Origin: an uncultured archaeon
GTDB taxonomy: Archaea > Asgardarchaeota > Thorarchaeia > Thorarchaeales > Thorarchaeaceae
Length of the DNA stretch: 64,000 nucleotides
NCBI GenBank assembly: GCA_964354495.1
Contig: CAYHAA010000002.1
Coordinates: 80,234 to 144,233 of the forward strand
Direction: 5' to 3'
Position 1 is the first letter of the stretch. Every line of letters starts with the position of its first letter. Both the position numbers and the translations under genes were made by a program. The notes beneath the pieces were generated by a model that saw nothing but the letters and a program-made list of their open reading frames with translations, did no database searches and was not told the DNA's origin. Below are positions 16,270 through 57,306 of this stretch, one piece after another.

Positions 16270-17415
16270 TCATGTCAGTCTATCGACTAATTCACTAAGA
16301 TCCAGAATCTCCAAGGAATCGTCAGACTGAGCATCACTAAGTCCTCGTTTACAGAATGGGCATCCGGACACCAGAACACTAGCTCCAGTGCTTTTTGCAT
16401 GGTTCATGCGAATCTTTGCAGTCTCGAGGCTCCAATCAGGGTATGCAGACTTGCAGCCACCTCCTGCTCCGCAACACCAAGCATTCTCGCGTATTCCATC
16501 TTCAGCACTGATTTCCCTGAATGTAATAGGGAGTTGTCCTAAGACATCTCTTGGAGCATCATACTCGTTCATATGCCTTCCAAGGTGACACGGATCATGA
16601 TATGTCACTTGTAAGGGGTTAGGAATTGAGTGAGTTGCCAATCGACCACTCCGAAGAAGTTCCCTGATATACTGCGAGATGTGCATGATTTCCGCATTCA
16701 ATTTAATGCCCATCTTGGGATAATCCCGGGCAAGTGTTCTATAGCATCCCGAACAGGATGTGACAACCCTTTGAGCGCCCGTCGCTTCGATTACTTCTTG
16801 GTTGTGTTCAGCCAGCGCACTGGTCAACGAGAGCTGCCCAGTCCGGAGTAAGGGCGACCCACAGCAATACTCGTCTACGATCGTAAAATCGACTCCGGCC
16901 TTTTTGAGAAGAGAGATTGTTGAGTCACGTATTTCTTCTTCACGATAATTGGATGTGCAGCCAACGAAATAGACCACCGATGCGCTCAGAGGAAGATTGT
17001 GAGCCCTTGTCAATGCTCTTGAATGGTGAGGTGCACCGTAGGGATTGTGATTCTCACTAATTCGCTCGGCAAATTTCCTGTGCTCAGGAAGTGGACCCAG
17101 TTCCTTCACAGCAAGAGCTCTTAGTTCCTCAATGACATCTAAGATATTCTGTCGCTGGGGTGCCAAACACTGTACTTCACAAGCGCCGCATGTCGTACAG
17201 GCAAAGATGGGATCCAGCAGCGATGCATCCCACTCTAGCTCGCCTTTCTGAATTCCATGTGCTATCCACAACCTACCGGATGCAAAGTAGGTTTCAAAAC
17301 TGAATGACTCGCCTGAGGGACATGAAGGACTGTATTCCTTGAAGGTATACTTGCAGTTTCCACAGCGGATGCAACTATGGAGCCACTCCTCAATTGCAGT
17401 TGGCAGAGTGGTCAT
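16270..17415 (-). CDS. (Fe-S)-binding oxidoreductase subunit with two 4Fe-4S motifs and two CCG domains (GlcF / heterodisulfide-reductase-like)
   Basis: CIRCGNCKYTF...CP and CTTCGACEVQC cluster motifs. There are two CCG-type Cys-rich domains (VGCTSN...CCGSP and CCGAGGGC). The start overlaps the stop of the FAD oxidase gene. Confidence 0.65.
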   Translation of the reverse strand: MTTLPTAIEEWLHSCIRCGNCKYTFKEYSPSCPSGESFSFETYFASGRLWIAHGIQKGELEWDASLLDPIFACTTCGACEVQCLAPQRQNILDVIEELRALAVKELGPLPEHRKFAERISENHNPYGAPHHSRALTRAHNLPLSASVVYFVGCTSNYREEEIRDSTISLLKKAGVDFTIVDEYCCGSPLLRTGQLSLTSALAEHNQEVIEATGAQRVVTSCSGCYRTLARDYPKMGIKLNAEIMHISQYIRELLRSGRLATHSIPNPLQVTYHDPCHLGRHMNEYDAPRDVLGQLPITFREISAEDGIRENAWCCGAGGGCKSAYPDWSLETAKIRMNHAKSTGASVLVSGCPFCKRGLSDAQSDDSLEILDLSELVDRLT

Positions 17416-18836
17416 AGGCCAAGCCTCCCGGGATTCATGATATTGTTCGGGTCTAATAGCTTCTTCAGGTCTCTCAGAAGTTTGAAGAAGGCGGGATCAG
17501 CGAACTGCCGTAGTCTTCTTGCTGACCATACGGGAGTCTTGTAGGGAATCGCCTTGAGCTCCAAGGCAAGGTCAAGAAGTTCCTCGTTACATCGACGTAC
17601 ACGTTCAAGAGTTGCAGGATCCTTTGGAAACCTGATGATGAATTTTAACTCTGCAAAATGAAGCATGTGCATGGGTTTGAGAAAGGACATCAACTCGAAA
17701 CCATACTTCTCAACAATCTTTCTCCCGCCCTCCAGAGCAGCTCCCCAGTTTTTGGGATGGATATATGTTCCTACCCAGGTAAGCCCATCATGTTGGGCGA
17801 GCACTTTGAACGCATCGGAAGGAAAATCAATCCAGGCATTCGCCTGTTCACCCATCAGTTTTGTGACCGTTCCCCAATCGATGAGGAGATTTCGTGGTTC
17901 GTCCTTCTTGGAGAGCTCAACAAGATGCTCTAGCTGTCTATACTTCTCATTCAATTCGATTTCCGAATTCGCAGATAGAATGAGGACAGTACCGTAGTCT
18001 GGTTCTCCTCGGTGGGGTTTCACTGGTGGTGCGACGCCCATTAGCATCTTTACAATAGAGAGCGACTGGCAATCAGCATCTTCAATGATACCCTCCCGGA
18101 CAATCCTCTTGAGCAGATCTGTTGTCTGATGTTCTCCAAAGGTGAATAGAGCTGCATAGGCAATTGCCTTCTTCTTCGGCCAGAGCTTGAGTGAAATCTT
18201 CGTTACAATGCCAGTCATTCCTTGCCAGCCAGAAAAGAGACCAACCAAATCTGGAAGAGGATATCTTCCAAACCAATTCCCTTCTCCCATGATTCCAGAA
18301 CCAACACGGACTATGTCGCCATTTGGCAGTACTGCCTCAAGTCCATTGATGAAATCGGACATCGCGCCATGCGTTGTCGAGAGATCACAGAGTCCTTGGA
18401 GTAGCGCGTTCGCCATGACCGAAGTGAAGGGTGGTGCGAGTGGGTACGTGTATCGTAGTGTTGGATAGTGCTTGCTTAGATGTTTCTTGACATCGCCAAA
18501 GGTCACGCCTGGCTCCACGAGCATGTACATCGCTTCCTCATCCACTTCCAGAATTCTATCCATGCGCTTGAGATCTACAATGACTGCTCCTTCGACCTGT
18601 GGTATCGTCAGACCTCCAACACTCTGTCCTGTGACAAAGGGAACCAGAGGCGTTCGGGTCTCATTGGCGAGCCTGATTATTTTCTGAACTTCCTCAACAG
18701 TCGAAGGCATCACAACCATCAGGGGTTCTTTAGAGAGATTCTCTGTCATGTCAAATGAATAGACGTACCGTTCCCCAGCTCCATCAGCAACGTGTTGTTC
18801 CCCAACGATCTGTTGAAACTGCGATTTCAGGTTCAT
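17412..18836 (-). CDS. FAD-linked oxidase (GlcD / D-lactate dehydrogenase family)
   Basis: FAD_binding_4-type N-terminal half with PFVTGQSVGGLTIP and a C-terminal FAD-oxidase_C-like half. It is co-transcribed with the Fe-S subunit. Confidence 0.7.
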   Translation of the reverse strand: MNLKSQFQQIVGEQHVADGAGERYVYSFDMTENLSKEPLMVVMPSTVEEVQKIIRLANETRTPLVPFVTGQSVGGLTIPQVEGAVIVDLKRMDRILEVDEEAMYMLVEPGVTFGDVKKHLSKHYPTLRYTYPLAPPFTSVMANALLQGLCDLSTTHGAMSDFINGLEAVLPNGDIVRVGSGIMGEGNWFGRYPLPDLVGLFSGWQGMTGIVTKISLKLWPKKKAIAYAALFTFGEHQTTDLLKRIVREGIIEDADCQSLSIVKMLMGVAPPVKPHRGEPDYGTVLILSANSEIELNEKYRQLEHLVELSKKDEPRNLLIDWGTVTKLMGEQANAWIDFPSDAFKVLAQHDGLTWVGTYIHPKNWGAALEGGRKIVEKYGFELMSFLKPMHMLHFAELKFIIRFPKDPATLERVRRCNEELLDLALELKAIPYKTPVWSARRLRQFADPAFFKLLRDLKKLLDPNNIMNPGRLGL

Positions 18837-18840
18837 TGGA

Positions 18841-19236
18841 CTATTCTCCCAACATCGAAACCATCAATCGGTAAAACCTGAGCATCGAGAGTGGGTGTCT
18901 TAGCAGACCACGAGTTTTGATTGTCCGCCCGAGAACAGCTCTTATCATTGAGGTTTCACCCCTAAAGAGACCAATGATTGTATTGAACTTCATAGAGAGT
19001 ACGATAGTCGGGTCATCAATATAATCAGCCACAATCTCAATCTGGTCACTGAAGACTATTGAGATGGGGTAGTAGTCAGTGTCCAAAACAACCGACATCC
19101 TCCAGCTTCCCACCTTGCGTCGCACCGATTCATTTTCTAACTGGCGATTTAGGAGCTTTCCGAGAAGGTTGCCAATGAAATCACTTGGCTCATGGAGCAT
19201 TGGAATCGACCTCAACTCGGAGTGACCACAAACCAC
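18841..19236 (-). CDS. SCP2 sterol-carrier-like small protein
   Basis: 131 aa with an alpha/beta pattern and an IIGLFRGE..MIRAVLGRTIKTRG segment reminiscent of SCP2. It sits 4 bp downstream of the FAD oxidase on the same strand. Confidence 0.35.
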   Translation of the reverse strand: MVCGHSELRSIPMLHEPSDFIGNLLGKLLNRQLENESVRRKVGSWRMSVVLDTDYYPISIVFSDQIEIVADYIDDPTIVLSMKFNTIIGLFRGETSMIRAVLGRTIKTRGLLRHPLSMLRFYRLMVSMLGE

Positions 19237-19361: not shown

Positions 19362-21632
19362 ATGGGATGTATCGTGAGAACAATGCTAGGGCGCAGTTCC
19401 AATTCGCCACTAAGGCTTTCAAGATTGTTGACAATCATAGTAGGCGCACTACTTGCCACATGCCTTGGATTCTTCCTGCTTCTCAATACCTGGAGCTCTT
19501 CACAGACAATCATTGCATATGATTCTATGCTCGCGTTTCTGGCTATCACTTGCTCAGCAGCTATCCTTGTTCAATATCGAGTACGAGAACATGCGGAACA
19601 GACAGTCTTCCATGCCGCCCTTTTTTTTGCCGCAATAATAAGCATGGGACGAGCAATCATGGCCATCTACGAAAACAACCCGCTATATGAATACAGCAGG
19701 ATTCATCTCTTGATTGATCTAGTCTTCCTTGCGATTTTCTCGTCGCTTGTATTCATTGGAATGGTCATGAAGAAGAGGGGCTGGTTGGAGAACAGAAGAC
19801 AGAGTTCCGTGATACTCATAGTTTCAGCAGTTCTGACTCACATTTTTCTATCTTCTGTCATCATTCCAGAGCTTTCTGAAGACAGCTTCATCATTATGGG
19901 GACAATACTGGGGATTTATAGCGGAATTGTCTTGCCCATGTGTGGGTTCATGTGGTCCGCGACTCCCGGAGGCTCCACTACATACGAAGCCAACCTGCTC
20001 GTTGGGGGTTTTGCTATCTATGGCCTTTCGTTTATTCCTTTTATCGTGACATTATACTTTCCATCTAATGCGTGGACTATATCGTACATACTCTGGTCCA
20101 TGGGCCTGGTCATAATGGGGCTAGCACCCTCTGTTGCTTTTCAGGTCCGGATAGGTATGAAATCATCTCGCGCCTATCTGTTACCGTTAGCCCTTTCTCT
20201 TCTGGTCATCATACCAACAGGTACTACCTTAACCGTTGAAACGTACGTGCCAATTCCGCCAACGGCAAACGTTGCCCTGTTCATTGCGCTCCATCTTGGA
20301 GCATCACTAATTGCCCTCTCAATGGCATTCTTGCTGAACCTCTACAATACTCACCGACCAGCTCCGAGGAGACGTCCTGTAATTTTGCTCTTTATCATAT
20401 GGGCGACAGTCGAATCATATCAGGTGATCAAGGCGGCCCTTATTCATCCCGATGCACTAGAACTCTCCATAATCCCATATCTTGTCGGTTCAATTCTTTT
20501 GCTCGTGCAGCTGCCAAATGCCATCAAATGGACAACCAGCACACCGGAAGTGCAACGAGCTATTTCAAGAAGGGATGTCCTTACCGTGCCGGGCGTTTTC
20601 GCAGCCATCCTGTTCTCAGAATACACTCAGATTCTCATGTATGGCTCTGGAAGTTACTGGGGATTTCAACCACTTTGTCGGACATTACTGTTAGCGACAA
20701 CTCTGCTGAATATGTTCGCCTTTTTCTACTACACATCAGTTCAGATACAGGATGGAAAAGGAAGAATCACTGTAGACTTGTTGGCCACAGGCTTCCTTGC
20801 ACTGTGGATCGTCCCTTCGGTGATCAAAGCCAATTTCCAAGAATGGACACTAGGCTGGTGGTCATCGGAGCTCATTCTGCTATTAGCTATCTTGATGGGG
20901 CCATCCTTTCTTGGACTGATGTATCTCAAAGAGATGAGCCGCGCAGAGGCATCTCAGAAACGTGCAACACTCTTCGCGGATCTCTTGGTTCATGACATAT
21001 CCAATTATCATCAGGCACTCGCATTCAGCATTGGCCTGCTTGAAATGGAGGATGCGGGACCTGTAGTGAAAGAGCAGGCAATCAGAGACTCGAAGAACGA
21101 ACTTCAGCGAGCGGATCATCTAATCAGGAATGTTCGTCAGTTGGGAATGGCAGATCAACTTACTCCAGACCGGCTATCCGCAGTGGATCTGATTCCAATC
21201 CTCCAAGAGGCGTTCCAACTTACATCCAGGAAGAGCCCCAGTCAGGAAGTCAGATTTAAGATCGATTATGAGTATGAAACCTGTCCGGTCTTGGCAAACA
21301 GCCTCTTGATTGATGTCTTCCTGAACATCTTCGATAACGCAATAAAGTACTCCAAAGGTACACCTGAGATAGAGGTGGCAATTACAGAAACTGCTCTGAA
21401 TCACGAGCCATGGTGGAGCATTCGTGTAAGCGACCATGGGGAGGGTATCGACCCCGAACGAAGAACTAGAATGTTCGAGCGATACATGAAGGATGCATCA
21501 GGAACAGGGTTGGGAATGAGCGTGGCAGGGACAATCATACATGCATTCGGAGGTTCAATCAAAGTGGAAGAACGGGTCCCCGGCAACTATCATGAGGGCA
21601 CAGTCTTTACTATACTTGTAAGAAGAGCCTAG
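19362..21632 (+). CDS. Membrane sensor histidine kinase with a large (about 14 TM) N-terminal integral-membrane sensor domain
   Basis: H-box LLVHDISNYHQ, N-box DNAIKYS, G1 DHGEGID and G2 GTGLGMS. The first ~520 aa are almost entirely hydrophobic helices. Confidence 0.7.
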   Translation: MGCIVRTMLGRSSNSPLRLSRLLTIIVGALLATCLGFFLLLNTWSSSQTIIAYDSMLAFLAITCSAAILVQYRVREHAEQTVFHAALFFAAIISMGRAIMAIYENNPLYEYSRIHLLIDLVFLAIFSSLVFIGMVMKKRGWLENRRQSSVILIVSAVLTHIFLSSVIIPELSEDSFIIMGTILGIYSGIVLPMCGFMWSATPGGSTTYEANLLVGGFAIYGLSFIPFIVTLYFPSNAWTISYILWSMGLVIMGLAPSVAFQVRIGMKSSRAYLLPLALSLLVIIPTGTTLTVETYVPIPPTANVALFIALHLGASLIALSMAFLLNLYNTHRPAPRRRPVILLFIIWATVESYQVIKAALIHPDALELSIIPYLVGSILLLVQLPNAIKWTTSTPEVQRAISRRDVLTVPGVFAAILFSEYTQILMYGSGSYWGFQPLCRTLLLATTLLNMFAFFYYTSVQIQDGKGRITVDLLATGFLALWIVPSVIKANFQEWTLGWWSSELILLLAILMGPSFLGLMYLKEMSRAEASQKRATLFADLLVHDISNYHQALAFSIGLLEMEDAGPVVKEQAIRDSKNELQRADHLIRNVRQLGMADQLTPDRLSAVDLIPILQEAFQLTSRKSPSQEVRFKIDYEYETCPVLANSLLIDVFLNIFDNAIKYSKGTPEIEVAITETALNHEPWWSIRVSDHGEGIDPERRTRMFERYMKDASGTGLGMSVAGTIIHAFGGSIKVEERVPGNYHEGTVFTILVRRA

Positions 21633-21708: not shown

Positions 21709-24700
21709 CTAGTCGCGTTTTGGAAGCAATGAACCTAGCAGCCTTCGTATGACTTCGAGAGTCGCCATATCGGGTGGGTCGACAAATAAACAGGATGTCA
21801 TAACGCGCTCCTTCCCAGGCATGATTGCTGAGAACTCATCGACTGCATTCAGAATCACCATATCGCCCAAGCAGACTGAGAGCATATTAACTTCAGTTCC
21901 ATTGACCATGTAACAGAGACCTTTTGTCTTCTTTCTGTTCTTCTCGGGTGCTATCCATATGAGATTGTCAGAAGGCGATACAGCCATGGGAACGTGTCCT
22001 CCTCGAATATCATACATTCTTCCAGACCATTTTGCATGTACTCTTCCACCTGATAGCTCTTTGTCAACTTTGGGGTCGATGAGAATCGATGGGAAGAAGC
22101 GAACAGGCGCAGTTGTGCGATTGAGAATCTGCCACTCGATTACGACAATGGGACAAGCAGGAGCTGTCAAGTACCTCAAGTTAAATTGAATCCCTCTTGT
22201 AATCTGTTGGATTTTTCCCTTCCAGCTAATCTCTACTCCTGACCAAATTCCGCGACTGTAGTTCTTTGCTGACATCTTCTCACTATTTGTACGGGCCTTT
22301 CCCAAAGACTCGCCCATTTCGTCATCAAAGACGACAGGTTGCACTCCGCCATGATAGTTGTCAAAGAATGCCCCAGGGCGTGGAGTTGCCTTCGGGAAGG
22401 AACTTGTCAGAAACTCGACACCTCTCTTATTCTTCAATGAGAACAGACAGCCGCCGTAGTCTTTAGAAACTGCAAACTCAATGCATGCATTTCGCACTCG
22501 GTGAACAATGCATCCCTGTTCTTCTGTTTTTGACACTTCAACGGATTTGCCAGAGCTTCCAAGTTGGACCATGGATATCGGGTCTGAAGTATCGTACTCC
22601 ATTCTTAGATTGCATTGTCCATTATAAACCCCAAATTCATCCTTGATTCTAGGACCCGGAGTGAGGACCAAATCGAGTGATGAATCCTCAGCGAAGTTGA
22701 TTTCTGTCTTGAGTCCATCCAGTTCATGAGAATGGGACTTCAAGACAGCTCTCCATCCTCTTGGCGGCGTCACTTCGAGAACACCCCCATGGGGCGTGTG
22801 CAATGGGCTGTGGATGTGTACCTTTGTATGTGCTTCACCGACATGTGGAAGTATAACAGGATCAGTTGAGATTGTTAGTAGATGTTGGGCAGTTTGCTTC
22901 TTTGAAGCTGACAGTCTCTCTTCATAGTAGTGTGCGACTCGGGACCTCCAAAGTCGCTGAATATCTCTCCAGCTTCGCTTGCCAAAGACCAACCATGAAT
23001 CAGTAATCTTGCGCTTTTCTTGAGGTTCAAGAGTCACGACAGGAAATCCGAGCGCACTCAACTGACCTAGAATGATGTGTATCTCTTCTACTTTATCCAG
23101 ACACCACATCTGAGCCTGCACAGAGTCCTCGTTTTCTACGGCAATCCATCCTTCACTATATGCTTTGGGTTCACTGGGAATAGCTGGAAAGGAAAAGAGG
23201 GTGTTGCCTAGGGGTTCACTAACAACGCCAGACGAGAATGGCACATAAACTTGACCTGCCGCAAAACTGACTCCTCCACCTCTGCCCACTAGACGACCTT
23301 GAAATGTCTGGCTCTCACTACTCGAATTCTCTACCCATTGCTCGTGTTTTATGACTCCTGTGCCGAACTCGAATATTGCCCTATCTTCCACAATGAGGGG
23401 CTTGTCTAGGTGTCTGGCCTGCATAGAAACAACCATTGCAGAATCCGAAGGACTCACAGTCAATTTACGTTCTGCAAATCGAAAAGGACTGAGACCAAAT
23501 GGTGGACCTATCTGAGAACTCTGTGTTATGCTTTGAGATGTTTCTGAATTCACGTCTTGCACTGTGAGAATAGCTCCTTCTCTGGCAAATCGTGCAGTAT
23601 AATGCGGTGAAACAATCACTGCCTCGAGTCTGCGATCATCCTCGCCCACTGCAACGTCCTTCTTTCCGAGGCAGAAGATCGGGATACGAAAATCTCGAGT
23701 TGCTACCTTGATGTCTTTCTCAATATCGAGGGTCAGAGTCAACCAGATATCGTGGGTTCCATCCGCAAGGTCTGCGGATGAGGATACTTCAAGCATAGTG
23801 CCTCCTTGTCCCTTTGCTTTCAGCATGACCTCATCAGGCATCACTTTGATTTGCACGGAACTGGAACTGCTTCGTGCGTCAATATGAGCCAGTGACTCCT
23901 GGTTCAGATTGCTGATGACTGTAATAGGAATTGTACTACTGCCGCCTGCAGCTATACGGCACTCTCCCCAGCGCGTCATAATCTCAGCAGGAGATTGCAC
24001 TTTCAATCCTGTATGCAACATTGAAACCTCGCCATTCATCTCGATTTCTGCGGAAATGGATGGAGCCTTAATGTTGTCCCTAAAGAGAGGCGCCGAGGAA
24101 GTCAAATGAAACGGCACATTCCATACTGATTTTTCGCCGGGTTCGATGACTGCTCTTCTACTTGCATCTGCATCGAACTGCAAACCGGAAAACTCTCTCA
24201 GATTGATGCGCGTCGTCAACTGCTTACCGGAGATGTTGTCGATCTCAAGAGAATAGACATAGGGCAGACCGCAGACAACCTCCTGGGAGTCTACGAGAGC
24301 TGCAATACTAATCTTCTCGCCATTCGATGTGCGTTCTATAGCACTGATGCCTCGAGCGTATCTGTCCACTGTAACAGAAAGAGCCGAATCGCCCATTCGG
24401 AACTCATACGGGTAGATGGCCATTCCATGCTTTTTGAAATCATCCGGAGCCTGGGTTGGATTTCTAATATGCACGTCGTACCATTCGTGAACTCCGTGAA
24501 GTAGATCGAAGAAGGGAGCGCAAAGCGGGTGCTTGAGAATTCCAGGAATATAGTCATACATGCTCAGGCCCTGACCTTCTGGATCCCACATCATACCAAC
24601 TTTCTTGTACAGAGGAACTGCACGTATATTGCCTGGCCACGTGTTGAGATCCACACGCGTGTAGCCACCTGCAGATGCTATTCGGATTGACTCTAGGAGG

Positions 24701-25014
24701 AGTTGTTTGCCGACCTTCTTGCTGAGGGCTTCGGGAGACACTCCAAGTGTACCAACATAGGCAGCTTCGTCATCTCTCCAATGACGATGGACGGTGCATG
24801 AGCCCACGGGCTTGTTGGTTTTCTTGTCAATTGCAACTAAGAGAGCAAGTGCACTGATCTTACCGTATTGTTTCTTGACACGATCAGCAGTATAGGGAAC
24901 TCCCTGAGTGAAACCTCCCGGCCATAGGTCGTCCCAGGTGTTCCACATGTGCGCTATGGCTTCGGCTAAAGACTCATCATACTTCCGTATTTCTATCTGC
25001 ATCGTATCGGACAT
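21709..25014 (-). CDS. Giant (1101 aa) protein with an N-terminal GNAT acetyltransferase domain and a C-terminal region of about 950 aa with no recognisable family
   Basis: The first ~150 aa have GNAT motif A: VGTLGVSPEALSKKVGKQLL. The remainder is soluble with no TM helices and no motifs I recognise. Confidence 0.5.
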   Translation of the reverse strand: MSDTMQIEIRKYDESLAEAIAHMWNTWDDLWPGGFTQGVPYTADRVKKQYGKISALALLVAIDKKTNKPVGSCTVHRHWRDDEAAYVGTLGVSPEALSKKVGKQLLLESIRIASAGGYTRVDLNTWPGNIRAVPLYKKVGMMWDPEGQGLSMYDYIPGILKHPLCAPFFDLLHGVHEWYDVHIRNPTQAPDDFKKHGMAIYPYEFRMGDSALSVTVDRYARGISAIERTSNGEKISIAALVDSQEVVCGLPYVYSLEIDNISGKQLTTRINLREFSGLQFDADASRRAVIEPGEKSVWNVPFHLTSSAPLFRDNIKAPSISAEIEMNGEVSMLHTGLKVQSPAEIMTRWGECRIAAGGSSTIPITVISNLNQESLAHIDARSSSSSVQIKVMPDEVMLKAKGQGGTMLEVSSSADLADGTHDIWLTLTLDIEKDIKVATRDFRIPIFCLGKKDVAVGEDDRRLEAVIVSPHYTARFAREGAILTVQDVNSETSQSITQSSQIGPPFGLSPFRFAERKLTVSPSDSAMVVSMQARHLDKPLIVEDRAIFEFGTGVIKHEQWVENSSSESQTFQGRLVGRGGGVSFAAGQVYVPFSSGVVSEPLGNTLFSFPAIPSEPKAYSEGWIAVENEDSVQAQMWCLDKVEEIHIILGQLSALGFPVVTLEPQEKRKITDSWLVFGKRSWRDIQRLWRSRVAHYYEERLSASKKQTAQHLLTISTDPVILPHVGEAHTKVHIHSPLHTPHGGVLEVTPPRGWRAVLKSHSHELDGLKTEINFAEDSSLDLVLTPGPRIKDEFGVYNGQCNLRMEYDTSDPISMVQLGSSGKSVEVSKTEEQGCIVHRVRNACIEFAVSKDYGGCLFSLKNKRGVEFLTSSFPKATPRPGAFFDNYHGGVQPVVFDDEMGESLGKARTNSEKMSAKNYSRGIWSGVEISWKGKIQQITRGIQFNLRYLTAPACPIVVIEWQILNRTTAPVRFFPSILIDPKVDKELSGGRVHAKWSGRMYDIRGGHVPMAVSPSDNLIWIAPEKNRKKTKGLCYMVNGTEVNMLSVCLGDMVILNAVDEFSAIMPGKERVMTSCLFVDPPDMATLEVIRRLLGSLLPKRD

Positions 25015-25163
25015 GTCACATCAACCCAAGAGATGCTTGTTAAGAAGGAATACGGATTGATTAGTATATTCCTCGGAGCATGGAACGCCAACATGCCTAG
25101 TGCGACTTGTTTCTGCGGCTGTCTGCAGCCAAGAAGGTAGAATCACTAAACTATTCAGAACGT

Positions 25164-25643
25164 CTATTTGTACGCTGGAGGCGGCCAGAATCCTAGAGCC
25201 TGACGCGTGGCCACAATTTCACCAATGTGGTAGGTGTTGTGTTGAGCAATGGACATGATTGCAGCAAAACGCGGAACCTTTGGCCATGCAGGAAGATCTT
25301 CCATTGATTCTATTCTGCTAGCCTGCGTATCTGCTTCGATAAGACCTTGCTCAAACTTCTGAACAAGCTTCAACCAGTCATCGGCATTCTTTGAGATGGT
25401 GTCAGATAGCCAGCTCTTCTCGTTGTTATTAGGCCAGTCGACAGCCTCGCCCCTCAGTGCTTTTAGCATCAATTCCTGCCAATACACGATGTGATGAAGG
25501 ATACTCCAACATGAATGAGTTCCCGGTTTGGGAACCCTGCGGGCTGTGTCCGCAGTCAGACCTCCAATCGCTTTCATTGGGTCGATATGGATGTATTTTC
25601 CTCTGAGTCCTCTCTTGAGAACACCTTCCAGTATCTCGAACAT
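25164..25643 (-). CDS. DinB/YfiT-like (DinB_2) four-helix-bundle protein
   Basis: 159 aa with conserved His residues (HxxxYW...QHNTYHIGE pattern) typical of DinB_2 metal-binding bundles. Confidence 0.45.
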   Translation of the reverse strand: MFEILEGVLKRGLRGKYIHIDPMKAIGGLTADTARRVPKPGTHSCWSILHHIVYWQELMLKALRGEAVDWPNNNEKSWLSDTISKNADDWLKLVQKFEQGLIEADTQASRIESMEDLPAWPKVPRFAAIMSIAQHNTYHIGEIVATRQALGFWPPPAYK

Positions 25644-29532: not shown

Positions 29533-30924
29533 GTGACAGCGGCAGCTGAAGATTGGAATTATGGTGAAGCCCATTACATAACCAATTCATCAGCCTTAGG
29601 AATAGGTGCCCATTCGCTCACCCTTGCATTTCCATGGAGTGGTTCTGGCAGTACCTATCATGGATGGGCAGACCAAGTATTTGTCCGGCTTTCAGTGAAA
29701 GATTGTCAAGAGGATTCCGTACAGCTAATCAGATACTGGCTCCAAGTGGCTGTTTCAGAGAGCGTGTGTCCACTCGTAGTGGACATCAGGAGGACAAATG
29801 GCGAGAGCCTTTACTCGAGTCCTTTCATCTATCAAATCTACCAGAGCGAATATGCTCCAAAGGTGGTTCTAGTCTATAATAATTCCTACACAGTGTTCAG
29901 TCCAACTCGTGTCAACGATACTCTCTTAGTCCCTGCTGGAAATCTGTCTGCTAGATTCCAATGGCCCTATCGGGATCTATTGATCCACAACTTCACCACT
30001 CAGACGAATCAATCCATGTTCCTTCGTTTCAGTGCTCAATTCGTGCGTCTCGATGTCGAGTGTAGCCAGCGCATGCCTGAACTCGAAATCAGAGTTGCGT
30101 ACTATTACGGCTCTTGTGAATACGAGCATATTCTCGCCTACTCCTCTCCCTTCTTCTACACTCCGTCTAATAGAACTCTCGTTATCGAAGTTGGATCATT
30201 TGATTCGTCTTTTGAGATTCTTGTTTCAACAGTTCGGGTTCGAACATTCTTGACTGCAGTCAACACGGGTTTCAATAGAAACATGACGCTAGTCATTCAT
30301 CCTAATTGGATTCAGATTGGTAACCTATTGATTCCTCCGGGGAAACTCATGTCACTTCTTTCGTTTGCAATGATAGTTCTGATAGCACCAGTTTACTACA
30401 AGTCAAAGATAGTGAAAAGCAGAGCTTTCATACCCTGGGGTTTTCTGAATCTTAGCCTCATTATCCCCTGGCTAAGCTCGTTTGATGAGTCGCCCTATGT
30501 GGAATCAACTCCAATTATGAACTATATTACCTATCGGACTGGCAGTCCAATCTTTAGTACGATAGTTTACAACAGTGATTCGAATGCCGTCCTCATGGCA
30601 CAATCAGAGAGAGATATTGGGATCGCCATTTTGCTGTGGATGATTATATTTTTGGTCTTCGTTGTGACCACTGGTCAGCTTGAAGGATTTGAATCAAAGA
30701 TGAAAGAAAAAGCTGCGGGATTAGGAATAGTCATTTGTTGTTGCATTGAGTTTCTCTATCTTGCATATCTCTTTCAGACCTACGGCTATATTGGTCTGAC
30801 GCTTGAGATGGGCCCCTTTTTCTCCATAGTGGCTGTCATCTTTTGGCTAATCCATCCTCTAATCATACCGAAGGTATATAGCTCTAAGCCTCAAGTTGAT
30901 TCAATTGAAACTGCCAATGCTTGA
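29533..30924 (+). CDS. Putative surface glycoprotein with C-terminal polytopic membrane region (hypothetical)
   Basis: Starts at GTG with no signal peptide of its own. It has many N-x-S/T sequons (NSS, NNSYT, NDTL, NLSA, NFTT, NQSM, NRTL, NRNMT, NLSL) and hydrophobic helices in the last ~170 aa. Confidence 0.4.
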   Translation: MTAAAEDWNYGEAHYITNSSALGIGAHSLTLAFPWSGSGSTYHGWADQVFVRLSVKDCQEDSVQLIRYWLQVAVSESVCPLVVDIRRTNGESLYSSPFIYQIYQSEYAPKVVLVYNNSYTVFSPTRVNDTLLVPAGNLSARFQWPYRDLLIHNFTTQTNQSMFLRFSAQFVRLDVECSQRMPELEIRVAYYYGSCEYEHILAYSSPFFYTPSNRTLVIEVGSFDSSFEILVSTVRVRTFLTAVNTGFNRNMTLVIHPNWIQIGNLLIPPGKLMSLLSFAMIVLIAPVYYKSKIVKSRAFIPWGFLNLSLIIPWLSSFDESPYVESTPIMNYITYRTGSPIFSTIVYNSDSNAVLMAQSERDIGIAILLWMIIFLVFVVTTGQLEGFESKMKEKAAGLGIVICCCIEFLYLAYLFQTYGYIGLTLEMGPFFSIVAVIFWLIHPLIIPKVYSSKPQVDSIETANA

Positions 30925-40867: not shown

Positions 40868-42283
40868 ATGGAAGTATACGAGATAGCATATGTGTTTCTT
40901 GGACTGGCAACATTAGTGGCCGCTGGAACCATTATTAACTATAGTCACAAGAGATCCGTAGCATCTCCGGACCCTGAGATTAAGAAAGCCTTCAGACCGC
41001 TCTATATCTTCGCCATCGGTCTAATCGTTTTTGGAATTGGAGCTCTGCTTACATTCCTCGTGCGCAACAATCAGATTTTCCCATGGGATGATACTTCTTT
41101 CGTCAGATTGCATAATCCGTACCTGAGATATTACACGATATTCTATGTATTCACTCTTGTTGAGTTGTTCTTCCTGACTATCGCAGCTGCGATGATTCTG
41201 AAACAATGGTTGATTTCTGTATTCATGGCCATTATGATTCTTATTGCGTTTCTTCTAATCTTCAATGCTGTTCTAATCGTCGAAGACATGAGAACAAGCA
41301 ATGTGGCGGAATTCTATATCAATTTTGGTAACGTATTGAGTATAATTCTGCTATCTGCAAATGCTGCCCTTTTTTCATGGATAGCAAATGATACAAGAAG
41401 GAGCACTAGCATGGCATTGGGCTACGCTATGATTGTGCAAGTCCTAGCAGTTCCACGTTTCTATGCAATACTGCCAACAGAACTGATATTCGCAATTACT
41501 GTCTTCGCACTTATGGGTCCAGCAATGATTGCTTTTGCGTTTCTGCGGCCGGACCAGAAGATATCAGTTGAACTCCTTGGTTATGGCGCCAGCTTTGCTG
41601 GGCCGGTTGTCATCTTCGCCAGTCTCATTTCGGCAGAACTTATCTCTAATCCCTTTATTGTTATTATAGCAGTATTTGGAGCAATAGCTATTGCCTTGGC
41701 GACTGGAACAGCTTCATACGCCTATGGCAGGTGGAGAGAGACTCGTCAGCTGCCTACAGCATTACTGATGGTCATCTTCGCAGCTATAGCGGCAGGACAA
41801 ATGATTGGCATGTTGGGTACCTTTCAGGTACTGCCGAACCTATGGTCAATTTACTTTGATTTTGCCGTGACTTCCTTTGCACTGGCTGTTTTCACATCTG
41901 TGGGAATCATGGCAGCCGGATATCGCACCTTGGCGTCATTACCCCTACTAGTCTATCTGCCAACAGCGATACTCATTACTCAACGCTTTCCGAATTCAAT
42001 CAGCCAGGCGTTTCTTGATTACGCCTATCTCGCAATTCCGGCGATGCTGTTCTTCTTCGTACCAGTGTTCCTTTTTGCAGGAGCTTGGAGGAGAATGAAG
42101 AAAGCTGGAACTGCTGGGAGAATGAGACCACTGGGGATGTCGGTTGGATTATTGCTGTTCTTAATAATCAGAGTCGCTTCTCTTCTCGCCGACATTCAAT
42201 TTGGAGATCCTGGTTACGGATTGGTGGCAATTGCGCTTGCAGTCCTCTGGTTGTCAATCACTGGCAGACTCGATAGATACTAG
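40868..42283 (+). CDS. Large polytopic membrane protein (about 12-14 TM), hypothetical
   Basis: Hydrophobic throughout. It starts 12 bp after the roadblock-like gene stop on the same strand. Confidence 0.45.
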   Translation: MEVYEIAYVFLGLATLVAAGTIINYSHKRSVASPDPEIKKAFRPLYIFAIGLIVFGIGALLTFLVRNNQIFPWDDTSFVRLHNPYLRYYTIFYVFTLVELFFLTIAAAMILKQWLISVFMAIMILIAFLLIFNAVLIVEDMRTSNVAEFYINFGNVLSIILLSANAALFSWIANDTRRSTSMALGYAMIVQVLAVPRFYAILPTELIFAITVFALMGPAMIAFAFLRPDQKISVELLGYGASFAGPVVIFASLISAELISNPFIVIIAVFGAIAIALATGTASYAYGRWRETRQLPTALLMVIFAAIAAGQMIGMLGTFQVLPNLWSIYFDFAVTSFALAVFTSVGIMAAGYRTLASLPLLVYLPTAILITQRFPNSISQAFLDYAYLAIPAMLFFFVPVFLFAGAWRRMKKAGTAGRMRPLGMSVGLLLFLIIRVASLLADIQFGDPGYGLVAIALAVLWLSITGRLDRY

Positions 42284-53254: not shown

Positions 53255-54589
53255 TTGAAGATACGGGTCTTGGTAGTAGATGATGATGAGGACCTTCTCT
53301 TTCTTGCCACTAAGTTCTTTGAGAAAGAAGACCAGTCGTTTGAACTAGTTGGGGCCAATACTGACCAAGAGGCTCTTCAGAAGCTTGAGGAGGAGGAGTT
53401 TGACGCGATTGTTTGTGACCACTATCTCGGTCCCCACAGCATGACAGGTCTTGGTCTTCTCGAATGGGTGAGAGAGGGGAATCCCAATATTCCTTTCATC
53501 ATCTTCACTGGGCGAAGTCAAGAGGCTGTTGCCATACGAGCTCTCAATCTTGGAGCAGACTACTATCTGAAGAAAGGAACGGATGAGGTGCGTGAGCTCT
53601 TCAGCCAAATAGCTTTGCGAATCAAATCAGAAGTAGAACAGAGAAGGACTGGAGAGGCACTTGAAGCTGCATACACTGACCTTGAGAAACGTGTCGCAGA
53701 GCGCACAGCAGAACTTGAGGAGATGAATGAGCGCCTCATCCACGAAATAGACGAACGCCAAAAAGCGGAGAGCTCACTGTTGATACAACAGGAATTGGGA
53801 AACACTCTTTGTCGGGCTGGAAACCTAACAGATGCACTGGATGCAATTCTCAAGACTGCAGTGCAGCTTGAAGGTGTTGATAGCGGAGGTATCTATCTGC
53901 TAGATGGTCAGACAGGCAAATCCGGATTCTCCTCAAACCATGGTCTTTCGGCTCAGTTTCTTCGCAGCTTCTTCAAGGAGAACAAGAATCCGTCCATCGA
54001 TGGGCCAATCTATTTGTCGAAATCAGATATTCAATCATCCACTATCGTTGAAGGGAAAGACAAGAGTCTCACTGCAGCAGCCATCATACCAGTTCAGTCT
54101 GAGGACAAGACGGTCGCAATTCTGAATCTGGTATCGCACACCCATGATGAGATACCTGAGAGGGTTAGACGTGCGCTAGAGGCGATTTCGATTCAGATAG
54201 CAGCATACATGACGAGAATCAGTGCGGAGAACATAATCTCAGAATCAAAATCCGGGGTTGAAGCAGTCACAGAACTACTAGATGACATGTTTCTAATTGT
54301 CAGCAAGGACTTCAATGTTCTTTATGCGAATAGCGCAGTTCTTGAACGGTTTGGATTGTCCCTGAATGCCTTATCGAAGAAGCACTTTCAGGAACTTTAC
54401 GATAGCCAAAGGACGGAGGAAGTCGCATCGAGCCTGCGGCAAGCATTTAATGGCAAAAGCGTGACTCTGGATGCTCCTTTGGGCCTTGATGGCGGGGCTG
54501 ACTTGAGAGTCACCACTAGAATCGCCAAGGCAATGCATGATAACCAAGAAGTACTTTATGCAATCGTGCACGAAATCAAGTCCCAATAA
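53255..54589 (+). CDS. Response regulator: REC domain + coiled coil + GAF/PAS-like sensory domains, no DNA-binding output domain
   Basis: REC with the VLVVDDDEDLL acidic pocket, phospho-acceptor Asp in AIVCDHY and the conserved Lys in YYLKKG. It is followed by a coiled-coil and about 280 aa of GAF/PAS-like fold. Confidence 0.6.
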   Translation: MKIRVLVVDDDEDLLFLATKFFEKEDQSFELVGANTDQEALQKLEEEEFDAIVCDHYLGPHSMTGLGLLEWVREGNPNIPFIIFTGRSQEAVAIRALNLGADYYLKKGTDEVRELFSQIALRIKSEVEQRRTGEALEAAYTDLEKRVAERTAELEEMNERLIHEIDERQKAESSLLIQQELGNTLCRAGNLTDALDAILKTAVQLEGVDSGGIYLLDGQTGKSGFSSNHGLSAQFLRSFFKENKNPSIDGPIYLSKSDIQSSTIVEGKDKSLTAAAIIPVQSEDKTVAILNLVSHTHDEIPERVRRALEAISIQIAAYMTRISAENIISESKSGVEAVTELLDDMFLIVSKDFNVLYANSAVLERFGLSLNALSKKHFQELYDSQRTEEVASSLRQAFNGKSVTLDAPLGLDGGADLRVTTRIAKAMHDNQEVLYAIVHEIKSQ

Positions 54590-55479: not shown

Positions 55480-57306
55480 ATGGCTTCTGAACATCAAAAC
55501 GGAAACAGTATGGATTTCGATTCTCTCGAAGAGCTGCTCCGACACCGAGTTCTGCTAGAGTCTTTGAGTGAAGGCTTCGGAGTTGTTGACGAGAAGAACG
55601 CCTTCTCCTATGTTAATAGGAGATTTGGTGAATTGCTTGGCTACTCTACAGGGGAGATGATTGGTAAACCAATATCTGAGTTCCTCGACAAACACAATCG
55701 CGAGGCTCAGCGCGAACACATCTCCAAACGTGCGCAAGGGCTGACATCGAAATATGAACTACATTGGATATCTAAATCGCAACGCATAATTCCGACACTT
55801 GTTTCAGGTGTGCCAATAATTGATAAGAAGGGCCATTTCAGGGGTTCATTTGCAGTAATCACTGATCTATCCGGCTATAGAGCATCAGAGAAAAAGTACC
55901 GGATGTTGGCAGAGCAGTCACTACAAGGGCTGACAGTCATTCAGAACGAAAAATACGTGTATGTCAACCCAGCGTTTGGTAAGATAGTAGGGTATACTCC
56001 GGAAGAGATTGTTGCCATGCCATCTGACATCGCATGGGATTTGATCTATCCCGAAGATAAGGGACTCCTTCTGAAGATTGCTCAAAACAGAGATTCAGGC
56101 AAACCAGTGCCAATGCCTTACATGTACCGATTCGTCCACAGAGACGGAAGCGTCAGATGGGTTGAGGCATTCTCAGGGAGTATTGAGTACGAAGGTGCAT
56201 TAGCACTACAGGTCCTCATTATCGACATAACCGATGTTAAGGAGTTCGAGGAGAATCTCAAGAAGTCCGAGGCAAAGTACCGGAATTTGGCGGAGCAATC
56301 ACCGCAGGGCATCACTATCATGGCAGAGAACAGGTTCCTCTACTACAATCCAGCATTCAAGGAACTTGTCGGATATGACGATGACGAATTAAGGCGTATG
56401 TCTGTTGATGACACATGGAATCTGGTGCATCCGGATGACCGAGAGGATCTCACAAAAAGAATACGTGACAAAACTGCGGGGAGAGCAATTGCCCCAAGAT
56501 ACGAGTATCGATACGTGAGGAAGAATGGAGAGGTTCGATGGGTAGAGAGCTATTCCAGCCAAGTTGAATATGACGGACAGCCAGCAATTCAGACGGTCAT
56601 AGTCGACATCACTGGAAGACGGCAATCAGAGAGGGAGTTAAGGTCTGCAAAAGACAGAGCCCTCCTCTATCTGGATCTCATGGGGCACGACCTGACGCAG
56701 CAGCTACAAGTCATTCTCAATAGCGCAGCGCTCATGATGAATGCAACAGATGAAAGCGTCCAAAACTCATTCTACAAAGTCATAGGTGATGCAATAAAGC
56801 GTTGCTCAAGAATCATTCAAGAGGCAAATTCGACAGAGCAGCTCCTTTCAGTGCCGCTCATTGAGAGATCCTTGACACAGGCAGTCACAACTTGCGTAGA
56901 AGCCATGTCACATGCTGAGAACATCACCTTTGAAACACTGATCATGGGAGGAAACGCCAGAGTAATGGCGGATGAATATCTCGAGCTTATGGTCTCCAAT
57001 ATTCTGATGAACTCTGTGGAACACAATGTCAAGGAGCGGAAGAAGGTCTGGATTCGCCTTGAACCATCAGGTCCAGACTATCTCCTCTCCATCAGTGATG
57101 ACGGGCCGGGCATTCCGGATTCTACGAAGGCAGGACTATTCGATATGTCACGGAGATTCGGAGGATTGGGTCTCCACACTGTGAATCACCTTGTTGAGAA
57201 ATACGGCGGCAGAATCGAACTCCATGATAGAGTGCCAGAACATTATTCTCATGGGCTCGAAGTAAGAATATGGCTTCCAATGCTCATCAAACAGGAAGAG
57301 GAGTGA
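55480..57306 (+). CDS. Cytoplasmic multi-PAS sensor histidine kinase
   Basis: Three PAS-like repeats (conserved W..PDD, RYVRKNGEVRWVE), H-box LMGHDLTQQLQ, N-box NSVEHN, G1 DDGPGI and G2 GGLGLH. There are no TM helices. Confidence 0.7.
   Translation: MASEHQNGNSMDFDSLEELLRHRVLLESLSEGFGVVDEKNAFSYVNRRFGELLGYSTGEMIGKPISEFLDKHNREAQREHISKRAQGLTSKYELHWISKSQRIIPTLVSGVPIIDKKGHFRGSFAVITDLSGYRASEKKYRMLAEQSLQGLTVIQNEKYVYVNPAFGKIVGYTPEEIVAMPSDIAWDLIYPEDKGLLLKIAQNRDSGKPVPMPYMYRFVHRDGSVRWVEAFSGSIEYEGALALQVLIIDITDVKEFEENLKKSEAKYRNLAEQSPQGITIMAENRFLYYNPAFKELVGYDDDELRRMSVDDTWNLVHPDDREDLTKRIRDKTAGRAIAPRYEYRYVRKNGEVRWVESYSSQVEYDGQPAIQTVIVDITGRRQSERELRSAKDRALLYLDLMGHDLTQQLQVILNSAALMMNATDESVQNSFYKVIGDAIKRCSRIIQEANSTEQLLSVPLIERSLTQAVTTCVEAMSHAENITFETLIMGGNARVMADEYLELMVSNILMNSVEHNVKERKKVWIRLEPSGPDYLLSISDDGPGIPDSTKAGLFDMSRRFGGLGLHTVNHLVEKYGGRIELHDRVPEHYSHGLEVRIWLPMLIKQEEE

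Follow-up and report, generated by a model that had tools for sequence, protein, structure and literature searches.

Few enzymes of archaea are as numerous, or as hard to assign, as the acetyltransferases of the GNAT superfamily, and 63 GNAT-domain proteins were counted as candidate acetylation writers in a single Loki strain (bioRxiv 10.64898/2026.07.02.735847). We analyzed a 64,000-nucleotide stretch of DNA from an uncultured archaeon of the Thorarchaeaceae (contig CAYHAA010000002.1, positions 80,234 to 144,233; here called the window), which encodes a GNAT-fusion protein of 1101 amino acids (aa). By sequence, the nearest solved structures are the stand-alone GNATs 2ge3 (Agrobacterium) and 2vi7 (PA1377). 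The fusion protein shares with them the catalytic fold, the acetyl coenzyme A (acetyl-CoA) pyrophosphate loop, an acidic residue on β5, and a Tyr on α4. Unlike these single-domain proteins of ~170 aa, it adds ~930 residues in six β domains as well as an unusually long, conserved α1-α2 loop. Structural models predict carbohydrate-enzyme-type modules for the remaining 85% of the protein. Together with a repeated coupling to GH38 mannosidases, this leads to a testable hypothesis, namely, that the protein may be a sugar or glycoconjugate acetyltransferase of cytoplasmic glycan turnover.

The overall build recalls that of large multidomain glycosidases (GH2 and GH38), with an acetyltransferase in place of the catalytic barrel. 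GH38, GH2 β-galactosidase, GH36, GH65, and GH94 carry supersandwich accessory domains, but the catalytic domain here is a GNAT and not a glycosidase barrel. The fusion protein shares twice the fold of the aldose-1-epimerase and galactose-mutarotase-like proteins (3mwx, 3os7, 3ty1, and the N-terminal domain of BDI_1685, 5cd6). Unlike in those proteins, the domain is present two times per chain, each time after an Ig domain, and is fused to a GNAT; there is no detectable sequence relationship, and the motif His varies among family members. O-GlcNAcase is another cytoplasmic chain that unites carbohydrate-enzyme modules with a GNAT fold, as a GH84 fused to a GNAT-like domain. Its GNAT-like domain is C-terminal and, in animals, noncatalytic, and a true GH84 is present. 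In contrast, the GNAT described here is N-terminal and intact, and there is no glycosidase domain. In double-GNAT enzymes (HisAT/NAT16, NMT, and MshD), as here, a GNAT is followed by a second domain, which in those enzymes completes the acceptor site; Thorarchaeota relatives of the HisAT/NAT16 type have been reported (PMC12219266). We rejected a HisAT/NAT16/NMT identity for the fusion protein: residues 190 to 1100 are almost all β-strand in its AlphaFold2 model, with no second GNAT, and NAT16 or NMT chains were absent from PDB sequence searches with it. We found no description of an architecture of GNAT plus Ig plus supersandwich in the searchable literature, and the combination lies outside the coverage of Pfam and other profile libraries. 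Members are currently annotated as "GNAT family N-acetyltransferase" or, misleadingly, as "RimI-like." Profile, fold, and motifs all place the protein in the known GNAT superfamily; what is new is the carbohydrate-enzyme-like accessory architecture.

The gene is a complete, uninterrupted open reading frame (ORF) of 1101 codons plus stop at 21709 to 25014 on the minus strand, reading from ATG to a stop codon at 21709 to 21711. A preliminary description of the window had called it a single gene with a canonical GNAT, the largest gene of the window, and soluble, with no transmembrane helices. All of this held: the ORF is intact, the next longest ORF encodes a P-type ATPase of 881 aa, and the maximum 19-residue Kyte-Doolittle hydropathy mean is 1.45, making a transmembrane segment unlikely. 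A Pfam scan found Acetyltransf_1 (PF00583) at residues 44 to 141 (E = 1.8e-11; 44.8 bits against a cutoff of 20.7) and no other family, leaving the region after the GNAT uncovered. NCBIfam gave GNAT matches only, far below threshold (WecD, 21.6 bits versus 219), and PDB searches with either the single sequence or a 70-sequence profile matched nothing but small stand-alone GNATs (2ge3 and 2vi7 among them). Since strand β1 of the GNAT begins at residue ~7, we conclude that the protein has no signal peptide. Because of its low hydropathy and because the chain opens directly with β1, the protein should be soluble and cytoplasmic. The start codon is supported by homologues of 1030 to 1120 aa, in which the N terminus and the length are kept.

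We built an AlphaFold2 model with a 70-sequence alignment (residue numbers of the model are one lower than those of the protein). The full-length model was confident, with a mean predicted local distance difference test (pLDDT) score of 88.2 and a predicted template modeling (pTM) score of 0.82. Since this pTM is high for a seven-domain chain, the model suggests that the domains are packed in a fixed, compact arrangement and not as beads on a string. The sole disordered stretch covers model residues ~699 to 709 (pLDDT below 50). All domains lie on the minus strand. The GNAT domain (residues ~1 to 166; 24517 to 25014) has the fold expected of the superfamily (β1-α1-α2-β2-4-α3-β5-α4-β6-7). It is followed by a short helical linker and a conserved β-meander that we call the cap (residues ~167 to 249; 24268 to 24516) and by Ig-like β-sandwich 1 (Ig1; residues ~250 to 351; 23962 to 24267), both delimited by AlphaFold2 secondary structure. 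At the position of Ig1, homologues also give weak Pfam matches to FixG_C, Cep192_D4, and NPCBM_assoc. Next come Ig2 (residues ~352 to 451; 23662 to 23961), seen in AlphaFold2 models and by hhalign to Ig3, and a galactose-mutarotase-like supersandwich with a terminal helix (SS1; residues ~452 to 703; 22906 to 23661). The disordered linker (~700 to 710) leads into Ig3 (residues ~704 to 820; 22555 to 22905; strands at model residues 713 to 816), and the chain ends with a second supersandwich and terminal helix (SS2; residues ~821 to 1101; 21712 to 22554). Confident predicted models thereby show how each domain folds. The preliminary description had seen no repeats or motifs after the GNAT, and at the level of fold this fails, as the region contains three Ig-like domains and two supersandwiches.

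SS1 and SS2 are the two largest domains, and the best fold matches of their predicted models are carbohydrate-enzyme modules. Both have the β-supersandwich fold of aldose 1-epimerase and galactose mutarotase (PF01263), and a Pfam match to that family was absent at E ≤ 1. A faint match to the GH94 supersandwich family of Pfam was found among homologues. Profile-profile comparisons gave a probability of 73% (E = 3e-5) for Ig2 against Ig3 by hhalign and of 24% (E = 8e-4; 157 collinear columns) for SS1 against SS2, the latter being suggestive and not conclusive. These comparisons support an old internal duplication of a putative unit of Ig, supersandwich, and helix.

To what extent the GNAT is intact can be judged from its conservation, which we scored on an alignment of 73 sequences from nine phylum-level groups. 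Fifteen of its residues are invariant (N25, Y86, G102, R120, T125, W126, G128, N129, A132, P134, Y136, K137, G140, W143, and P145). D122, which sits on β5 and aligns with the Glu of the "RIEL" motif of 2ge3, is Asp in 71 of 73 sequences and Glu in the other 2, and K103 is kept in 71. The textbook form of motif A is Q/R-x-x-G-x-G/A. The window protein has L-S-K-K-V-G, in which the first Gly is replaced by S98 (Gly in 55 of 73 sequences); the length of the loop and its last Gly, G102, are fixed across the family (73/73). We take G102, with K103, to lie in the pyrophosphate-binding β4-α3 loop, and N129 to Y136 to be the α4 "N-x-x-A-x-x-L-Y" motif carrying the general-acid Tyr. The α1-α2 loop is long and highly conserved (W31-P-G-G-F...P40). 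As the residues for catalysis and CoA binding show little or no variation across phyla, we predict that this intact and strongly constrained GNAT is a catalytically active, acetyl-CoA-dependent N-acetyltransferase.

Outside the GNAT, conservation is graded. The fraction of positions conserved at ≥90% is 27% in the GNAT and 12 to 17% in the linker and cap, the second most conserved segment. It is 5.3% in SS2, 4.4% in SS1, 3.9% in Ig1, 1% in Ig2, and 0% in Ig3. In the cap, W178, Y179, R184, D191, Y203, F205, D217, and R218 are ≥90% conserved. The residues of the β domains that are invariant or ≥96% conserved are G503-P-P505, N563, E621, and W623 in SS1 and N842, G889-G890, E912, W924, and N965 in SS2. 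The conserved Glu, Trp, and Asn residues of the supersandwiches are of the kind that lines sugar-binding sites, a role they may have here. Because conservation falls from the GNAT and cap to the Ig domains, we read the gradient as that of a working catalytic core and a predicted specific, conserved acceptor site amid freer structural domains.

We found that the fusion belongs to a large family. Our initial homology search yielded 157 proteins. Nearly all of them have 1085 to 1121 aa, cover 98 to 100% of the query, and belong to Thor-, Hermod-, and Lokiarchaeota; identities range from 89% down to 27% (89 to 25% over all full-length homologues). The nearest relative is from Thorarchaeota OWC2 (89% identity), which places the window in a related Thorarchaeote. 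We then left out the GNAT and used a profile of the remainder, from residue 180 onward, to search 1.84 billion representatives of 50% identity clusters; 630 of these matched at E ≤ 1e-3, of which 175 reached E ≤ 1e-30. Nearly all matches start at residue ~175 to 190 of proteins of 1030 to 1120 aa. A hidden Markov model of the family's GNAT region matched all 102 listed representatives of ≥1000 aa, and of nine distant representatives, eight have a GNAT according to Pfam. Most of the shorter representatives turned out to be truncated gene calls, beginning within the GNAT or lacking a Met, and we rejected GNAT-less variants as a real class of the family; one candidate exception, P0162 (790 aa), may lack the GNAT. 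Across these sequences, the fusion of GNAT and β region is shown to be obligate.

When one genome per species was scanned, relatives turned up in at least 159 genomes, a lower bound set by search patterns derived from an Asgard-centered alignment. Among 80 listed loci, ~32 are from Thorarchaeota, 5 from Hermodarchaeota, 4 from Promethearchaeota (Loki), 10 from Heimdallarchaeota or other Asgard archaea, 15 from Bathyarchaeia, 9 from Thermoplasmata (including Saliniplasma and Natronoplasma), 1 each from Nitrososphaerales and Aenigmatarchaeota, and 2 from Chloroflexi bins. The fixed seven-domain fusion is thus kept across Asgard archaea, Bathyarchaeia, Thermoplasmata, and other sediment archaea, and it ranks with the largest GNAT proteins of these organisms. 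Because its relatives are spread over many archaeal phyla, the family is a broad, ordinary archaeal orthologue set and not a lineage-specific invention. The preliminary description was right about an intact acetyltransferase fusion, but its suggestion of a lineage-specific enzyme does not stand against 630 clusters and at least 159 species genomes, and a toxin-like activity was not borne out either. It had proposed checking whether the C-terminal region resolves into well-known domains with ordinary orthologues: familiar folds and such an orthologue set were found, and a Pfam family or glycosidase domain was not. This is a sizeable pan-archaeal enzyme family whose "dark" region consists of familiar folds, less exotic than first suggested.

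Some family members have unexpected taxonomic labels. Fusion genes on contigs labeled Firmicutes UBA994 (L028) and Latescibacterota (L044) are 39 to 45% identical to the window protein, and L028 groups within the Thor/Hermod clade; both are probably misbinned archaeal contigs and not bacterial homologues. A 447-kb contig labeled Bathyarchaeia (L078) is collinear with Heimdallarchaeota loci, and its protein falls in the Heimdall clade. The shared block comprises HerA/DUF87, a PF12746 GNAT, GH38, the GNAT-fusion gene, and a giant Big-domain protein, and its placement reflects either block transfer or taxonomic misassignment. Two paralogous copies occur on separate contigs (L045 and L060) of one metagenome-assembled genome, CSMAG_2157 Bathyarchaeota.

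To survey gene context, we clustered all ORFs of 84 loci and pooled 119 immediate neighbors from non-Thor loci for a Pfam count. The sole recurrent partner across clades is a GH38 α-mannosidase (~935 to 990 aa), which lies directly upstream on the same strand at nine loci. Eight of these belong to a Heimdall-type clade and the ninth (L034) to the Thor/Hermod/Loki clade. Since the GH38 of L034 is only ~29% identical to those of Heimdall, the two genes either were paired long ago or came together on two occasions. At L034 the order is GalT, GalK, GH38, a small ORF on the opposite strand, and the fusion gene. At L057 an MFS_2 glycoside transporter, a xylose-isomerase-like TIM barrel, GH38, and the fusion gene follow each other on one strand. 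In both cases, GH38 is inside a sugar-utilization cluster. Besides this pairing, we found no cross-phylum conserved operon. The fusion protein itself is not a member of the GH38 α-mannosidases, as it has no match to PF01074, PF07748, or PF09261, and hhalign gave a probability of <4% for homology of its β region to the C-terminal domains of the neighboring GH38 proteins, leaving a likeness of fold only.

In our best reading, to which we give about even odds, the fusion protein would be a carbohydrate- or glycoconjugate-directed acetyltransferase of the cytoplasm whose β domains bind a carbohydrate-containing acceptor. According to this model, the catalytic domain would be seated in a rigid β-rich body (cap, Ig, Ig, supersandwich, Ig, supersandwich). 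As conservation indicates, the GNAT would bind acetyl-CoA through the β4-α3 pyrophosphate loop (G102 and K103), and in the transfer of the acetyl group the invariant Tyr136 of α4 would act as general acid and Asp122 of β5 as the likely base. A composite acceptor site may be formed by the α1-α2 loop (W31...P40), the cap, and the Glu, Trp, and Asn residues of SS1 and SS2. The supersandwiches would have a glycan-binding, site-shaping role as in GH2, GH38, GH65, and GH94, but around an acetyltransferase. Fold and gene context suggest that the acceptor would contain carbohydrate, as an amino sugar, glycoside, oligosaccharide, or glycopeptide. It might be made or used in cytoplasmic glycan turnover, in some lineages downstream of the GH38 α-mannosidase.

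Several observations weigh against this model. No sequence profile ties the supersandwich domains to any carbohydrate-active family: the SS2 profile had no match among PDB sequences at E ≤ 10, and the SS1 profile had only subthreshold matches to LacZ domain 5 (E = 0.26 to 1.1). The fold is also no proof of sugar binding, as it is found in YidC P1 and in the NDH subunit PnsB2. The link to GH38 is limited to ~10 of 84 loci, eight of them from one clade, and in most lineages there is no sugar-related neighbor or GH38. This includes the window, where tblastn found no homologue of GH38, GalK, GalT, or MFS_2. Finally, peptidases recur nearby. An M29 peptidase is present in Thorarchaeota and directly downstream of the fusion gene in one Bathyarchaeia locus (L046), and a DUF5700 Zn-peptidase is directly downstream in two Thermoplasmata loci.

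These peptidases would fit a protein or peptide acetyltransferase (N-α or N-ε) for which the Ig and supersandwich domains form an oligomerization or docking scaffold. Many GNATs act on proteins, with dozens in Asgard archaea (bioRxiv 10.64898/2026.07.02.735847), and relatives of the fusion protein are labeled "RimI/RimJ-like" in source databases, RimI (TIGR01575) being the JGI label. We tried that assignment and rejected it: the score with the RimI model is 18.7 bits (cutoff, 86.4), and the fusion protein is seven times larger than RimI. The best whole-chain Foldseek matches in the PDB are protein-binding Ig arrays (α-2-macroglobulin, hydin, and TRAPPII), but at template modeling scores of ~0.1 these are generic Ig arrays and uninformative. 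With the two largest domains best matching carbohydrate-enzyme modules and the only neighbor conserved across clades being a glycosidase, we regard a protein or peptide acceptor as possible but doubtful.

Similarly tentative is an extension of the carbohydrate-directed model in which the family would form a pan-archaeal class of glycan- or amino-sugar-directed acetyltransferases, with composite acceptor sites, working in cytoplasmic salvage of glycans or glycopeptides coupled to GH38. If true, GH38-coupled salvage would be a prokaryotic counterpart of the cytosolic free-oligosaccharide catabolism of eukaryotes and would be especially well represented in Asgard archaea. In a bolder variant of this salvage scheme, the supersandwich domains would themselves be catalytic, giving a bifunctional enzyme.

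We judge such a bifunctional enzyme improbable. One or both mutarotase-like domains would act in series with the GNAT, as an aldose epimerase or mutarotase or by cleaving glycosides. SS2 does have an "HGG"-like motif, whose equivalence to the epimerase catalytic site is a resemblance of pattern only. We found that its His is variable among the 73 sequences (Tyr in 21, His in 11, Ser in 10, Leu in 10, and Phe in 7), and this argues against a canonical mutarotase activity across the family. In addition, there is no Pfam Aldose_epim match, the SS1 and SS2 profiles find no epimerase among PDB sequences even at E ≤ 10, and conservation of these domains is low (4 to 5% of positions) relative to that of the GNAT. 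Although the departure of motif A from the textbook form could point to a noncatalytic pseudo-acetyltransferase like the C-terminal domain of eukaryotic O-GlcNAcase, in a lectin-like or structural scaffold protein, this is very unlikely, as the loop length and final Gly of the motif are invariant, Tyr136, Asn129, Arg120, and Asp122 vary little or not at all in nine phylum-level groups, and conservation is stronger in the GNAT than anywhere else in the protein, which is the reverse of what a degenerate domain should show.

In the window, the fusion gene stands alone behind a 149-bp intergenic region (25015 to 25163, minus strand). As read from the sequence, this region holds an A/T-rich, TATA-like element, AATATACTAA, ~45 to 55 nucleotides before the ATG, which is a putative promoter. 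As the preliminary description has it, the gene sits among sensor-kinase and accessory genes: we found a HATPase_c kinase gene (19362 to 21632, plus strand), a DinB gene (25164 to 25643, minus strand), and genes for a Zn-ribbon protein, an M29 peptidase, and a major facilitator superfamily (MFS) transporter. PADLOC-DB profiles of known antiphage defense proteins gave no match at E ≤ 1e-3 for the fusion protein or four neighbors, and we rejected membership in a defense system. The kinase gene converges on the 3' end of the fusion gene, and in its product of 756 aa only a C-terminal HATPase_c domain (residues 648 to 754) was recognized, the ~640 N-terminal residues having no Pfam family.

Thorarchaeota share a wider set of neighbors (DinB, Zn-ribbon, M29 peptidase, a GlcD-like FAD oxidase with its CCG/Fe-S subunit, a Mo-oxidoreductase, and Cob_adeno_trans). 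This set is confined to Thorarchaeota, with none of it reaching other phyla, and reflects lineage synteny. The oxidase and its partner lie at 16270 to 19236 on the minus strand of the window: a 131-aa ORF without a Pfam family (18841 to 19236) is just upstream of the GlcD-like FAD-linked oxidase (17412 to 18836), which is followed by the CCG/4Fe-4S subunit (16270 to 17415). The same trio is found near the fusion gene at other Thorarchaeota loci (e.g., L001, 13165 to 16088) and resembles an oxidase module of the glycolate or D-lactate type plus a small partner.

Other close neighbors on the same strand are heterogeneous (EamA, AIR-synthase-like, PEPCK, ABC ATPases, nitroreductases, RIO kinase, ZIP, and SfsA). 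At Heimdall-type loci, giant proteins of ~1760 to 1800 aa with Big_7, FG-GAP, Glucodextran_B, and HYR domains are encoded directly downstream of the fusion gene on the same strand (L062, 9400 to 14691; L073, 9387 to 14807; L078, 9430 to 14775; L004, 11445 to 16739), and a PF12746 "GNAT_acetyltran" gene and a HerA/DUF87 ATPase gene recur upstream. In Hermodarchaeota (L002 and L003, 1 to 7569, minus strand), a giant ORF of >4066 aa with only a faint CFSR match is directly upstream of the fusion gene.

Elsewhere in the window (1 to 64000), we found no tRNA genes and no Rfam family at the gathering threshold. Two plus-strand ORFs, of 463 aa (29533 to 30924) and 471 aa (40868 to 42283), had no Pfam match at the thresholds used. 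Signaling proteins abound in the window and include a multi-PAS histidine kinase (55480 to 57306) and a response regulator-GAF-PAS protein (53255 to 54589).

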